Below, piece after piece: positions 17,496 through 28,724 of a stretch of 29,204 nt of DNA; within the stretch, counting starts at the first letter, position 1; every line of letters starts with the position of its first letter. Origin of the DNA: Nitrospirota bacterium (GTDB taxonomy: Bacteria > Nitrospirota > Thermodesulfovibrionia > Thermodesulfovibrionales > JdFR-88); NCBI GenBank assembly GCA_021819985.1, contig JAKAEG010000001.1:1-29204 (forward strand), written 5' to 3'. A program made the translations under genes and the position numbers. A model generated the notes under the pieces. That model made no database searches, had not been told where the DNA came from, and saw only the letters and a program-made list of their open reading frames with translations.

Positions 17496-17782
17496 ATCTC
17501 TCTAGCCAGCGAAAAATGAACTACAAGTATTTCGTGCACCGGGACTGCGCTTTTTTCCCATGTCACGATCTTGCGGAATGGAGGTCGTGCCTTTTTTGCT
17601 GGTGCCCGCTTTATCTTCTGGACTGCGGCGGGGATTTCACTTTTAAAGACGGCATAAAAGACTGTTCTAACTGCACTATCCCTCATGCCGAAGATGGATA
17701 TGACTACGTCCTTCAAATTATAAGTGGCATGAGGCAGGATATCATGGAAATACTTGCCTTGAAAGGAGGTAACGCTATTTAA
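17492..17782 (+). CDS. Cysteine-rich small domain protein (zf-like, PF04071-type)
   Basis: CAFFPCH...CLFCWCPLY...CGG...KDCSNCTIPH; ATGA overlap with cbiO. Confidence 0.85.
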   Translation: MNLSSQRKMNYKYFVHRDCAFFPCHDLAEWRSCLFCWCPLYLLDCGGDFTFKDGIKDCSNCTIPHAEDGYDYVLQIISGMRQDIMEILALKGGNAI

Positions 17783-17817
17783 GTTTTTTTAATGGGCACA
17801 AAATAAACAGAGTTGAT
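17752..17817 (+). repeat. 66-bp direct repeat, copy A
   Basis: Matches 23887-23951 with 5 mismatches and 1 indel. Confidence 0.92.
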
Positions 17818-23335: not shown

Positions 23336-23389
23336 TTGACAATTGTTTCCGATTGGTTTATGATAACACGAAATTAAAAATCATAACAC
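23336..23389 (+). promoter_or_regulatory. nikR promoter TTGACA-N17-TATGAT with overlapping NikR operator (TAACA-N15-TAACA; TTATGAT-N15-ATCATAA)
   Basis: Read directly; matches the TRWYA-N15-TRWYA pattern of H. pylori NikR and resembles E. coli GTATGA-N16-TCATAC. Confidence 0.75.
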
Positions 23390-23390
23390 C

Positions 23391-23807
23391 ATGGCAATTG
23401 TCAGATTTGGAATATCATTAGACAGCGCGTTACTTGAGCGGTTCGATGGCCGCATAAAGAAAAAGGACTACGCTAACCGGAGCGAGGCGATCAGGGACCT
23501 TATCAGGGACAGCCTTGTCGTGGAAGAATGGGAATCGGCCACCGCCGAGACCGTGGGGACTATAACACTTGTCTATTCCCATGACACCAGGGAACTCACG
23601 GACAATCTTACCGATTTGCAGCATCACTACCACAACTCGATAATCTCGGCGATGCATATACACTTGGATGAGCACAATTGCCTTGAAGTTATTGTGGTAA
23701 AAGGCAGGGCGAAGGATATAAGAACGATAGCCGACAGACTGATCGGCACAAAAGGAGTGAAACACGGAAAACTTACGGTGACGACTACCGGGAAACGTCT
23801 GAAGTAA
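23391..23807 (+). CDS. nikR: Nickel-responsive regulator NikR
   Basis: RHH RFGISLD...[11 protein letters not shown]; Ni ligands QHHY...[12 protein letters not shown]. Confidence 0.97.
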
Positions 23808-23825: not shown

Positions 23826-23850
23826 TAGCACGTTTTTCGGAAAGATAACA
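23826..23850 (+). promoter_or_regulatory. Candidate second NikR operator TAGCA-N15-TAACA
   Basis: One mismatch to TRWYA-N15-TRWYA; upstream of the YHS/porin genes. Confidence 0.45.
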
Positions 23851-23886
23851 CTAAATTGGTCTCTAGCTGGATCTCTGGGAGCATTG

Positions 23887-23951
23887 ACTTGCCTTGAAAG
23901 GAGGTAATCCTATTTAAGTTTTTTAGTAGGCTCAAAATAAACAGAGTTGAT
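23887..23951 (+). repeat. 66-bp direct repeat, copy B
   Basis: Matches 17752-17817. Confidence 0.92.
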
Positions 23952-23991
23952 ATTGATTTTTGGTTGGGAACTTAAGAAAGGGATAATGCAA

Positions 23992-24330
23992 ATGATGAGA
24001 AAGGACTTTCATCTCTGGAGATCAGCGGCCGCACTTGCGACAATTATTCTGTTGATGGGGAGCGGGACCTTCATGCCTTTTGCGTGTGCTGCATCCGTCA
24101 CAAATAGCTCTTCAGTACCAAAGCCGGAAATGGTGGGAAATAAATTCTGCTCGGTAAGCGGCGACAGGATCAACGAAAAAAACAAGGTGACTTACGAATA
24201 TAAGGGCAAGGTCTATAATTTCTGCTCCCCGGATTGCGTTGAGGAGTTCAAAAAGGACCCTGAAAAATATCTTGAAAAAATGGAAAAAGCGTATAAAGGA
24301 GCAGACGGCTTGAAAGTATCGAGCCACTGA
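23992..24330 (+). CDS. Exported YHS/TRASH metal-binding domain protein
   Basis: Signal peptide; CSVSG...[26 protein letters not shown]; start 23986-23995. Confidence 0.85.
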
Positions 24331-24347
24331 ATGCGGGAAGGGAACGG

Positions 24348-25811
24348 ATGACAACATTGAAACAGCTTATTAAACTGTGGATATTCTCCGCATCCATGAT
24401 TTTGTGGCTTCTCTTGCCGGCTTTCACTCATCTCGTCTGGGCCGAAGCGCCCGGGGACTCGAATTCAACGGCGCCGGACCACGATTCATCTGGAATTCTG
24501 CCGTTCCTTTCCGGTATGTGCCGCTGCAACAATATGTTGGGCGACAGGTGGGGGGGGCTCCGCCCGGTGCTGGGCGGCTATGGCGTCTCCCTCTCGCTGC
24601 TGGAGACCAGCGAAGTGCTCGGCAATGTGTCGGGCGGCGTCAGGCAGGGTTTCGAATATGACGGATCAACCTATGGAGTCCTGCAAATTGACACAAAAAA
24701 GGCGTTTGGGTTGTACGGCGGGACCTTCAACGCGAGCGCCCTTCAGATACATGGGCGCAATTTGAGCACGGACAACCTCCTGGTTTTGCAAAGCGCCAGC
24801 GGCATAGAGGCCTGGCGCTCCACGCGGCTGTGGGAGCTCTGGTATCAGCAGCAGTTCGATAAGGCTGACGCGTATGACGTAAAAATCGGCCAGCAAAGCC
24901 TCGATCAGGAGTTCATGGTGAGCCAGAATGCGCTGCTTTTTGTCAATGCCATGTTCGGTTGGCCGATGTTGCCGGCGGCCGACCTGCCTGCCGGGGGGGC
25001 GGCCTATCCGCTCGCCTCGCTTGGCATTCGACTGCGCACGCATATCCCCACTACGCCATGGACTTTTCTGACAGGCGTGTTCAGCGGCAGCCCGGTAAAG
25101 AACAACGCCGGCGATCCGCTGGATTCGTCCGGGACAAGTTTTGCGCTTAATACCGGCGCACTTGCAATAGCCGAAGTGCAGTATGCTTACCCGCCGTCGG
25201 GAGCTGGCCAAAACGGGAAAGGGCAGCTGCCGCGGGTATATAAACTTGGCTTCTGGTACGATACTGAAGGATTTTCGGATCAGAGATTCGACGACACCGG
25301 CTCGTCTCTCTCCAAGCCTGAAAGCACGGAAATTCCGCGGACGCATGGGGGCGATTATGCCATCTACGCCGTGCTGGATCAAACGATCTGGCAACAGGTT
25401 TCGGAACCGGGCCGGACGCTCAATGTCTTTGTCCGTGCGATGGGGACTCCGCTGACCGACCGCAATACCGTTGACTTCAGCATGAATGCCGGCATTACCT
25501 TTAAAGAGCCGTTTTTACACCGCTGCTGTGATTCTTTCGGCCTTGGCGTGGGCTATGCCCATGTCAGCAGCCAGGCGGCGGCGTTTGACAGGGATGCCAA
25601 TTTCTTCAATAATTCGGCCTTGCCGGTCCGCAGCGGAGAAACCGTAGTGGAGGCGACTTACCAGTATCAAATAACTCCGTGGTGGCAGGCGCAGCCGGAT
25701 TTTCAATACTTTTTCAATCCCGGCGGGGGGATTCCCAACCCGGATTCTTCCTCCGGGGAGCGGGTAAAAAATGAGGCGGTCATCGGATTGAGGACCACTA
25801 TCACATTTTGA
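24348..25811 (+). CDS. OprB-family (carbohydrate-selective type) porin
   Basis: MLGDRWGGLR, GNVSGGVRQG, RLWELWYQQ, KIGQQSLDQEF, EATYQYQITPW, QPDFQY, GLRTTITF. Confidence 0.88.
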   Translation: MTTLKQLIKLWIFSASMILWLLLPAFTHLVWAEAPGDSNSTAPDHDSSGILPFLSGMCRCNNMLGDRWGGLRPVLGGYGVSLSLLETSEVLGNVSGGVRQGFEYDGSTYGVLQIDTKKAFGLYGGTFNASALQIHGRNLSTDNLLVLQSASGIEAWRSTRLWELWYQQQFDKADAYDVKIGQQSLDQEFMVSQNALLFVNAMFGWPMLPAADLPAGGAAYPLASLGIRLRTHIPTTPWTFLTGVFSGSPVKNNAGDPLDSSGTSFALNTGALAIAEVQYAYPPSGAGQNGKGQLPRVYKLGFWYDTEGFSDQRFDDTGSSLSKPESTEIPRTHGGDYAIYAVLDQTIWQQVSEPGRTLNVFVRAMGTPLTDRNTVDFSMNAGITFKEPFLHRCCDSFGLGVGYAHVSSQAAAFDRDANFFNNSALPVRSGETVVEATYQYQITPWWQAQPDFQYFFNPGGGIPNPDSSSGERVKNEAVIGLRTTITF

Positions 25812-25865
25812 AAGAAAAATACGGAGGAGAAACTTCGCAGCGCGGTTATGGTGGACGGGACAGGG

Positions 25866-25902
25866 AAAGGAGGATAGAGTCATCGGTCATGAATTTTATG
25901 AT
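25866..25902 (+). repeat. Bipartite motif AAAGGAGGAT-N16-AATTTTATGAT, copy 1
   Basis: Same two blocks and spacing at 28876-28912. Confidence 0.6.
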
Positions 25903-25955
25903 CACGCCTTTGACGGACCATATTTGTCTTTACAAAATTTCATTGGAGGTTTTAA

Positions 25956-26642
25956 ATGCATATCCCCGATGGATATCTTAGTCCTGAAACATACGTGCCT
26001 TTTTACGGAGTGTCCCTCTCGATCTGGGCTGTCGCCCTCAAAAAGATGAAAAAGACGCTGTCCGTCAGGCATATTCCCTACCTTGCCATGGCGTCGGCCT
26101 TTTCATTTCTTATCATGATGTTCAATGTTCCCATCCCGGACGGCACTACCGGCCACGCGGTTGGCGGAGGGATCATTGCTATCCTGCTGGGACCCTGGAC
26201 TGCGGTGATAGCCGTTACCGTCAGCCTGATAATCCAGGCGCTCGTCTTTGGAGACGGCGGAATAACCTGTCTGGGCGCTAACAGCTTCAACATGGCCATA
26301 GTGTTGCCTTTTGTATCCTACTGGGCTTTTAATCTCATAAGGGGACGCTCCGTCTCCGGCCCAAGGCTCTATATAGCTGGATTCCTTTCCGGGTGGTTAG
26401 GGCTGTCGGTGGCCGCGGCATGCTGCGGAACAGAGTTGGGAATCCAGCCCCTGATCGCCCATGGGCCTGGCGGAAGACCCCTTTATGCGCCGTATCCCCT
26501 GAAGGTGGCCTTCCCCGCCATGGTATTGGGCCATATGGGCGCATTCAGTATAGTGGAAGGCGCAATCACTGCCTTGGTGCTCGTTTATTTTGTCAAGCAC
26601 GAGCCGGACATGATTTATGCATTCCGGCGCAAGGAGGCCTGA
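25956..26642 (+). CDS. nikM: Nickel ECF transporter S component NikM
   Basis: MHIPDGYL, GTTGHAVGG, GDGGITCLGAN; SD GGAGG; linked to nikR. Confidence 0.88.
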   Translation: MHIPDGYLSPETYVPFYGVSLSIWAVALKKMKKTLSVRHIPYLAMASAFSFLIMMFNVPIPDGTTGHAVGGGIIAILLGPWTAVIAVTVSLIIQALVFGDGGITCLGANSFNMAIVLPFVSYWAFNLIRGRSVSGPRLYIAGFLSGWLGLSVAAACCGTELGIQPLIAHGPGGRPLYAPYPLKVAFPAMVLGHMGAFSIVEGAITALVLVYFVKHEPDMIYAFRRKEA

Positions 26643-26643
26643 A

Positions 26644-26985
26644 ATGACGAAATTTCAGAAAAAACTCTGGGGCGGCATCGCTGTTATTGCGCTTCTTACG
26701 CCTCTGGGGCTCATTATCCCGGCCATATTCCAAGGCGGACTGGGAGGGGGCGACGCATGGGGCGAGTGGGAGCCTGACACACTTAAAAAAATGATAGGTT
26801 TCGTGCCGGATGGATTCAGAAGTCTGCACGGTCTGTGGCCGGCTCCGTGCAAGGACTATAATTTTGCCGCGACTTCCAATGCCGGTCAGTTATTATCATA
26901 CATTGGGTCCGGAATCATCGGCATAGTGGTGGCCGGGCTATTGATATATTTAATCGCGAGGATAACCATCCGGCATGGAAAATAA
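26644..26985 (+). CDS. nikN: NikN / PDGLE-domain accessory protein
   Basis: LTPLGL...AWGEW...VPDGF...AP..DY plus C-terminal TM. Confidence 0.8.
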   Translation: MTKFQKKLWGGIAVIALLTPLGLIIPAIFQGGLGGGDAWGEWEPDTLKKMIGFVPDGFRSLHGLWPAPCKDYNFAATSNAGQLLSYIGSGIIGIVVAGLLIYLIARITIRHGK

Positions 26986-27892
26986 AATACCTGGCTTCCT
27001 GCTTGAAAAGCCGTCATCGCCCCCGGCCATGGGAAGACTCAGGACTTCTTTCATCGAGAATGGCATCCATCATGTGGCGAATATTATCAAAACCGGGTAC
27101 ATCCAGTGGGAGACCGCTTCGGAGGATAATTTCTTCCAGCAGATCGACGCGAGAGTGAAGGTCCTTTTCCTTCTCTTTTTCGTCTTGATCGTGAGCCTGA
27201 AAAAAGACATCGTGCCAGAAGCCCTGATCGGGGTTTTTGTATTAATTTTGACCCTTATGGCGCGCCTCGATGTTATCAGCTTCTATAAACGGGTCCTCTT
27301 CTTCGGCTTCATCTTCGGTTTCCTGATCGCCCTCCCTTCAGCTTTCAACGTCATCACAAAGGGGACGATAATTCTCCCAGTATTGAGCCTTTCAAGACCT
27401 CATGGTTTCTGGATATACCGGATACCAAAGGAAATCGGCATTACGAGGGAGGGGGCTTATGGCGTCGCCATGCTTACGCTAAGGGTCATGGACTCCCTGT
27501 CAATATCTCTTTTCGTTTTGTATACCACCCCATTTCCGGAGATCATAAAGGCGCTGAAAGTGCTGAAAGTCCCCGACAGCTTCCTTATGATCATAACCCT
27601 TGCCTACAAGTATATCTTCATATTTGCAAAGACGGTTGAAGATATGCACCTCGCGATAAAGGGGAGGCTGGCGGGGCATATCAGCGATTCCGATGCGAGG
27701 AAATGGATAGCAGGCAGGATGGCGTTTATATTCAAAAAGACCAGGCTCCGGTGCGAAGAGATTTTCAACGCGATGCTTGGCAGGGGTTTTTCGGGCGACG
27801 TGCGGATTTACCGGGCAAGAAGGCTCCGCGCAAGGGATTGGATTACAGGAGCCGTCCTTTTCATGAGCGGGATTATATTTTTATTGATATGA
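26975..27892 (+). CDS. nikQ: Nickel ECF transporter T component NikQ
   Basis: QQIDARVK, LAYKYIF, AMLGRGF. Confidence 0.87.
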   Translation: MENKIPGFLLEKPSSPPAMGRLRTSFIENGIHHVANIIKTGYIQWETASEDNFFQQIDARVKVLFLLFFVLIVSLKKDIVPEALIGVFVLILTLMARLDVISFYKRVLFFGFIFGFLIALPSAFNVITKGTIILPVLSLSRPHGFWIYRIPKEIGITREGAYGVAMLTLRVMDSLSISLFVLYTTPFPEIIKALKVLKVPDSFLMIITLAYKYIFIFAKTVEDMHLAIKGRLAGHISDSDARKWIAGRMAFIFKKTRLRCEEIFNAMLGRGFSGDVRIYRARRLRARDWITGAVLFMSGIIFLLI

Positions 27893-27902
27893 GGTGATTT
27901 TT

Positions 27903-28724
27903 GTGGAAGACATGATAAGCCTTGAAGGGATAAGCTTCAGCTACTATAACAGGATTCCCGCTCTCTGCGACATGAGTTTAGGCATTAAAGAGGGGGAGAG
28001 ATTCGCCATTATAGGCGCAAACGGAAGCGGCAAGTCAACACTCTTACAGATTATGAGCGGCCTGATACATCAATCGGAGGGGAAATATTTTTTCAAGGGC
28101 AGGGAGATATCGGAACATGCCCTGAGGGACAAAGGTTTTTTGCGTTTCTTCAGGGAGAGGGTCGGCTATGTGTTTCAGGATTCCGATATCCAGTTGTTCT
28201 GCCCGACTGTCCTGGATGAGCTGCTTTACGGCCCCATGCAGTTGGAGCTGAAGGAAAGCGAAGCCTTGGACCGGGCCTTCGAGGTAATGAGGATACTTAA
28301 TATCGAGAATCTGAAGGACAGACCCTCCTACATGCTTTCGGGAGGAGAGAAAAAAAGGGTAGCCATCGGTTCGATCCTGACCATGAACCCGGAAGTATTA
28401 CTCCTCGATGAGCCGACAAACGGTCTTGACCCCAGGACGCAATGCTTTCTCGTCGAATTGATGCTTGCCTTAAATGATGCCGGAAAGACAATCGTAATAG
28501 CGACGCACGATTTGTCCCTGGTCGGCGAACTTGATGCAAAGGTAACTGTGCTTTCAGAAGACCATCGGGTCGTGACAACCGGCAGAGCCGATGATATATT
28601 AAAAGACGAGAGTATTCTTCTGGATGTGAATCTAATCCATGAGCATATCCATTTTCACGGTAAATCTTCCCATAGCCACTTGCATTCTCATTATCTATTC
28701 CATCGGCACAAAGATAGGGAGTGA
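27903..28724 (+). CDS. nikO: Nickel ECF transporter ATPase NikO with His-rich tail
   Basis: GANGSGKST, LSGGEKKRVA, LDEPT, ATHD; SD GAGGTGA before GTG 27903 (27894 or 27912 also possible). Confidence 0.88.
   Translation: MEDMISLEGISFSYYNRIPALCDMSLGIKEGERFAIIGANGSGKSTLLQIMSGLIHQSEGKYFFKGREISEHALRDKGFLRFFRERVGYVFQDSDIQLFCPTVLDELLYGPMQLELKESEALDRAFEVMRILNIENLKDRPSYMLSGGEKKRVAIGSILTMNPEVLLLDEPTNGLDPRTQCFLVELMLALNDAGKTIVIATHDLSLVGELDAKVTVLSEDHRVVTTGRADDILKDESILLDVNLIHEHIHFHGKSSHSHLHSHYLFHRHKDRE

Follow-up and report, generated by a model that had tools for sequence, protein, structure and literature searches.

The OprB-family porin encoded between nikR and nikMNQO in this Nitrospirota genome is, judging from its relatives and their gene neighbourhoods, a transplant from an iron-uptake operon into a position that is likely under NikR control, where it probably admits nickel but is not specific for it. 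The reading that we favour, and consider reasonably likely, is that the porin serves as a NikR-controlled channel of the outer membrane, passive and independent of TonB, through which small metal ions or complexes pass, with the selectivity set by NikM.

The window (the whole stretch of 29,204 nucleotides that was analysed) carries nikR, a NikR-type box, yhs, oprB and nikM-N-Q-O in this order on the plus strand [Table 1], and upstream of nikR lie a cbiMNQO operon and a btuBFCD-tonB block, both with B12 riboswitches. The placement of yhs and oprB between nikR and nikMNQO, with 17 nt separating the two genes, was confirmed as given in the preliminary description, and the nikR-yhs-oprB-nikMNQO order is shared by four other assemblies of close strains.

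Table 1. Features of the nikR-yhs-oprB-nikMNQO locus (window coordinates).
Feature	Position	Strand	Support or remark
Sigma70-like promoter of nikR (TTGACA-17-TATGAT)	23336..23364	+	11/12 matches
NikR-type box 1 (TAACAC-N14-TAACAC), overlaps -10 element of nikR promoter	23364..23389	+	
nikR	23391..23807	+	NF003381 above cut-off
NikR-type box 2 (TAGCAC-N14-TAACAC), ahead of yhs-oprB cassette	23826..23851	+	Sister block has box 2 too
Non-coding copy of zf-like gene 3' end and spacer	23887..23951	+	Sequence repeat
yhs, exported YHS/TRASH-domain protein, 112 aa	23992..24330	+	PF04945, E 2.9e-12
oprB, OprB-family 16-strand porin, 487 aa, C-terminal Phe	24348..25811	+	PF04966, E 3.9e-88
nikM, ECF S component, N-terminus MHIPDG	25956..26642	+	
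nikN	26644..26985	+	Matches C-terminal part of NF005598
nikQ	26975..27892	+	
nikO, ATPase	27894..28724	+	

The pattern TARCAC-N14-TARCAC has four matches in the 2.96-Mb genome, all of which flank nikR genes, one on each side of nikR both in the window and in the paralogous block of contig C78, whereas shuffled versions of the genome gave 0-3 matches (mean 0.9). The half-site agrees with the published NikR signal GTGTTAC-N13/14-GTAACAC, and the regulator and importer genes are likewise those of the described NikR-nikMNQO ECF system; however, the boxes are direct repeats where the published one is inverted, and the locus adds an outer-membrane gene (PMC545781). At the other nikR loci of the class, a NikR box in inverted or direct form was found upstream of the gene in 46 of 65 cases and downstream in 19 of 65. 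The NikR of G. uraniireducens reportedly binds direct repeats. Since a NikR-type box lies directly upstream of the cassette, control of the yhs-oprB-nikMNQO unit by NikR is likely, which is in line with the earlier assignment of the two genes to a nickel regulon. Ni-NikR would repress the unit, the genes from yhs to nikMNQO would be co-expressed, and the porin would be made when nickel is low. No terminator-like site was found on the plus strand of the nikR-yhs interval, and a weak promoter-like site at 25910-25938, which is without a NikR box, might let nikM be expressed independently of the porin gene.

The oprB product passes PF04966 with 296.8 bits (cut-off 22.9), and its structural model has 16 strands, with the export signal judged by eye and the pore loops modelled at low confidence (residues 186-221 with pLDDT below 50). 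The best Foldseek match is the P. putida OprB (4GEY, TM 0.71), which has the same 16-strand fold but a sugar as its substrate. Conceivably, the Pfam family name and this match could indicate an ordinary sugar porin; yet the two proteins are 22% identical, the ORFs of the window that were scanned revealed no sugar genes (as the preliminary description had stated for the neighbourhood), and the relatives of the porin lie in iron operons, so we regard a sugar porin as highly improbable.

We then compared the porin with its homologues, using an alignment-based scan of genome contigs and taking as sample the 160 best among over 900 pattern matches; OprB clades further away may well be linked to nik genes, as in L296 and L298. 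The porin was not found in 39 relatives of the host, in which the best hits were partial matches of 29-40% identity; the nearest homologues (53-72% identity) are mostly from Alphaproteobacteria, and also from Verrucomicrobia, Acidobacteria and others. Among 166 loci of the closest porin relatives, neither nikR nor a YHS gene occurred, and the single cbiM was 4 kb off on the opposite strand. An NHL-repeat gene stood beside the porin in 137 of the 140 loci with enough flank, typically about 17 nt downstream, and a Dyp peroxidase (EfeB-like) was present in 106 of 109 such loci, a representative of which passes the EfeB equivalog TIGR01412. Cupredoxin genes were found in 55 and FTR1 genes in 21 of the loci of this clade, and the nearest sister porins sit behind hemP/FeoA/Fur genes. 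The porin tree, which was built with FastTree only, nests the window porin in this Efe-like iron-operon clade, with an SH-like support of 96 for its grouping with L015-L018 and L101. In the window, by contrast, the porin is followed by nikM and not by the NHL-repeat and Dyp peroxidase genes. Because the relative loci are of the iron-operon type and none has nikR, a nik-linked OprB clade, which had been envisaged earlier, is absent among the close homologues; a lack of linkage to nik genes was one of the outcomes that the preliminary description had named as refuting its proposal. As a separate observation, the operon of porin, NHL-repeat protein and EfeB-like peroxidase (with cupredoxin and FTR1 in some cases) is very stable over several phyla (e.g., L154:7373-8548, L123:8531-9883, and about 130 similar loci), and its 390-aa NHL-repeat protein is without an assigned function.

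The position between nikR and nikM can evidently be held by different barrels. The sister block (contig C78, complete in L357) reads zf-btuBFCD-tonB-nikR-barrel-nikMNQO, in which the barrel is a 540-aa, AlgE-like PF13372 protein unrelated to OprB, and its nikM is 84% identical to that of the window. Window and sister block are homologous up to a point past box 2 and again from about 55 nt ahead of nikM, which places the limits of the cassette at about 23855-25900; this cassette would have replaced the AlgE-like barrel. The PF13372 barrel is probably the older occupant of the position, since homologues of it come after the nik genes in G. metallireducens, where a perfect NikR box stands in front, and after nikM-nikN in genome G176; the G. 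metallireducens gene (CP000148.1, L359:7001-8605), an 'alginate export' barrel, lies 49 nt past the NikR-boxed nik(MN)QO. Across the class, a barrel gene comes first after nikR (second here, after yhs) in 24 of 66 nikR loci, which are related and not independent samples. These barrels belong to COG4313/PF13557 (15, two of them broken), LbtU-like proteins (4), TonB receptors (2), and the AlgE-like and OprB families (1 each), with 1 unassigned. Five barrel families in one position imply that barrels were recruited there at least five times, and the barrel seems optional, as 42 of the 66 loci, including the native C150 locus of this genome, have none in the position. Our literature search found no paper describing nikMNQO operons with a position in which barrels are interchangeable.

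Similar barrels stand before other metal importers. In the 30 best loci of the COG4313 family, the barrel stands before cbiM in 12 cases and before feoA in another 12, and before nik genes and chemoreceptors in 2 each. Distant PF04966 porins precede nikK-nikM (L296, L298), cbiM (L280) and feoA (L297). Most of these neighbours were named from BLAST matches or by inspection, and representatives were checked against Pfam. This sharing of the same barrel families among iron, cobalt and nickel operons argues for channels of low selectivity whose expression is induced together with that of the importer. One COG4313 subfamily, in which the mature protein usually begins with HPL[IV]TDD, was seen in 113 of the 251 genomes of the class, mostly at the head of Fe, Co or Ni uptake genes (e.g., L208:6919-7683, L213:6718-7536, L301-L330), and is a candidate metal channel family. 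Directly after a boxed nikR, L269 encodes an unassigned 335-aa barrel-like protein with a C-terminal Phe (L269:883-1887), and L229 encodes, in the place of nikM, a 237-aa His-containing membrane protein with a weak DsbD_2 match (L229:5315-6025, minus strand), a possible alternative Ni permease.

The genome has three nikR loci, on C122, C78 and C150. The C150 copy is of the type found in the genus and is 64% identical to the window copy, and the C122 and C78 copies have nearer counterparts in other families (80-86%), which suggests that a Co/B12/Ni uptake block was acquired and has been duplicated; with 2.7% contamination in the assembly, co-binning of C78 is possible. A 65-nt repeat made of the last codons of a zf-like gene and the adjoining spacer occurs at 17752-17817 and 23887-23951 of the window and at C78:147-211. 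Two copies precede btuB riboswitches, and the third is the non-coding remnant before yhs, a probable leftover of recombination or a piece of promoter. We discarded the idea that the repeat is an RNA or operator of wide distribution, since it has no Rfam match and occurs in this genome only among 251.

The remnant of a cobalt-operon zf-like gene at the 5' junction would also fit a cassette that is a mere passenger, recombined behind a NikR box and encoding a general, iron or cobalt channel whose nickel regulation is incidental. Consistent with this, the cassette is confined to one species-level lineage, with the porin missing from the 39 relatives, a porin follows that zf gene in a genome of the same genus (L224), and the kin of the YHS protein come from Cus-type efflux clusters. 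However, the porin occupies the exact position of another barrel in the sister block, and barrels recur after nikR far above their usual share of a few percent of genes. The porin is also intact in the two strains compared, which differ by 26 synonymous and 23 non-synonymous codon changes, and the crude pN/pS of 0.27 points to a gene maintained under purifying selection. A passenger therefore seems rather unlikely to us, and we keep to the reading of a NikR-controlled channel of low selectivity.

We next consider whether the porin has itself changed since the transfer. Its stem branch is 0.63 (median end branch 0.2), and it is altered at 8 columns that are conserved in at least 95% of the relatives (median of relatives, 1). 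Five of these columns fall within the predicted L2/L3 region, which we take to be the constriction of the OprB pore. Four Cys are new (C58, C60, C393 and C394), all retained in strain L011, and by strand topology they face the periplasmic side. Such changes could mean that the porin was retuned into a channel selective for Ni or a Ni-chelate, with the new Cys, the YHS protein or both handing the ion on, a version of the preliminary description's view that is confined to this lineage. Against this, L2/L3 acquired neither His nor Met, and H135, M202 and M207 date back to the iron clade; one and the same barrel family is found in Fe, Co and Ni operons; the YHS gene is frameshifted in L334 and missing from the other nikR loci; and loss of partner proteins would also give a long branch. 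The changes thus fit either retuning or relaxation after the loss of partners, and we think a nickel-selective porin improbable. We are equally sceptical of the broader proposition that the NikR operons of Thermodesulfovibrionia and Geobacter hold dedicated TonB-independent Ni channels drawn repeatedly from unrelated barrel families (COG4313, LbtU-like, AlgE-like PF13372 and OprB), with this OprB retuned to Ni through its constriction loops and Cys cluster.

The YHS protein scores 46.8 bits against PF04945 (cut-off 30.3) and has a Cys triad of C53, C78 and C82. The signal peptide and C..FCSPDC motif of the preliminary description are both there, with FCSPDC at residues 77-82 after C53 and, by eye, a hydrophobic N-terminal stretch ending in an A-x-A site. 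It shares the three-Cys motif with FCSxxC of the YHS/TRASH domains, of which one assayed member senses copper, and differs from that member in being stand-alone and exported (PMC4626032). Close homologues adjoin YtkA-TolC-CusB-type efflux genes or a cation-efflux gene, and most carry CCxxC, many with a His tail, whereas the window copy has CSxxC and no tail. No YHS gene occurred at any of the 65 other nikR loci, and in L334 a one-base insertion parts the signal peptide from the domain (seen in a single contig, where an assembly error is possible). We know of no YHS/TRASH domain that binds Ni. The proposed role as a periplasmic nickel metallochaperone, comparable to BtuF, is thus unlikely, and the protein resembles a hitchhiker from clusters for copper export. 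It would have arrived as part of the cassette, and probably either is dispensable or serves as a general thiol/metal buffer.

The genome encodes [NiFe] hydrogenases and a CODH-like gene. Its only TonB receptors found in the assembly, which is 94% complete and may miss a receptor, are two BtuB types with B12 riboswitches, and no COG4313 homologue of the nikR-linked type was found in it. Because the position after nikR repeatedly holds channels and the TonB receptors are all BtuB-type, the TonB-independent outer-membrane route proposed earlier is plausible, but the nickel selectivity ascribed to it is unsupported. Ni(II) would cross the pore into the periplasm and feed NikMNQO, which would set the preference for nickel. 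Two observations on selenocysteine genes can be added. In a [NiFe] hydrogenase large subunit on C47:1796-3346 (minus strand, L360), both N-terminal Ni-ligand Cys codons are TGA and the C-terminal motif is normal; two TGA codons also occur in 22 of 34 matches to it among relatives, and SelA and tRNA-Sec are both encoded in the genome. In addition to the normal tRNA-Sec with a UCA anticodon on C127, a long tRNA whose anticodon is GCA (Cys) lies at C307:14105-14200 (L361) and exceeds the Rfam tRNA-Sec cut-off.

Metal-regulated porins ahead of metal importers are already known or predicted, and the earlier statement that describes OprB porins as carbohydrate porins is incomplete, since it leaves out the iron-linked cases of FeoP, the Fur-boxed OprB of Geobacter and Slr1908 (PMC2631029, PMC545781, PMC8707739). 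FeoP of Acidithiobacillus (feoPABC) and the OprB before feoAB in G. sulfurreducens, both predictions, likewise place an OprB porin under a metal repressor and ahead of an inner-membrane metal importer, but with Fur and iron in place of NikR and nickel, and the likeness to FeoP is drawn from the arrangement of the genes (PMC2631029, PMC545781). Slr1908 of Synechocystis, an OprB-domain porin with a measured iron uptake phenotype, differs as a major porin of the cyanobacterial SLH-OprB type (PMC8707739). HopV and HopW of H. pylori are NikR-regulated predicted porins, and loss of hopV lowers cell Ni, as indicated indirectly; unlike the window porin, they belong to the Helicobacter-specific Hop family and lie outside a nikMNQO operon (PMC5385501).

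Entry of Ni through the outer membrane where there is no nickel TonB receptor is usually ascribed to unnamed general porins (PMC11247825, PMC7726332), and the window locus and its sisters name candidate nickel channels. They also hint at the substrates of barrel families that now carry annotations as channels for sugar, alginate or hydrocarbons. The AlgE-like homologue after the NikR-boxed nik(MN)QO of G. metallireducens is a candidate nickel channel in a culturable and tractable test case, and the window porin would represent a natural swap of regulation from iron to nickel.
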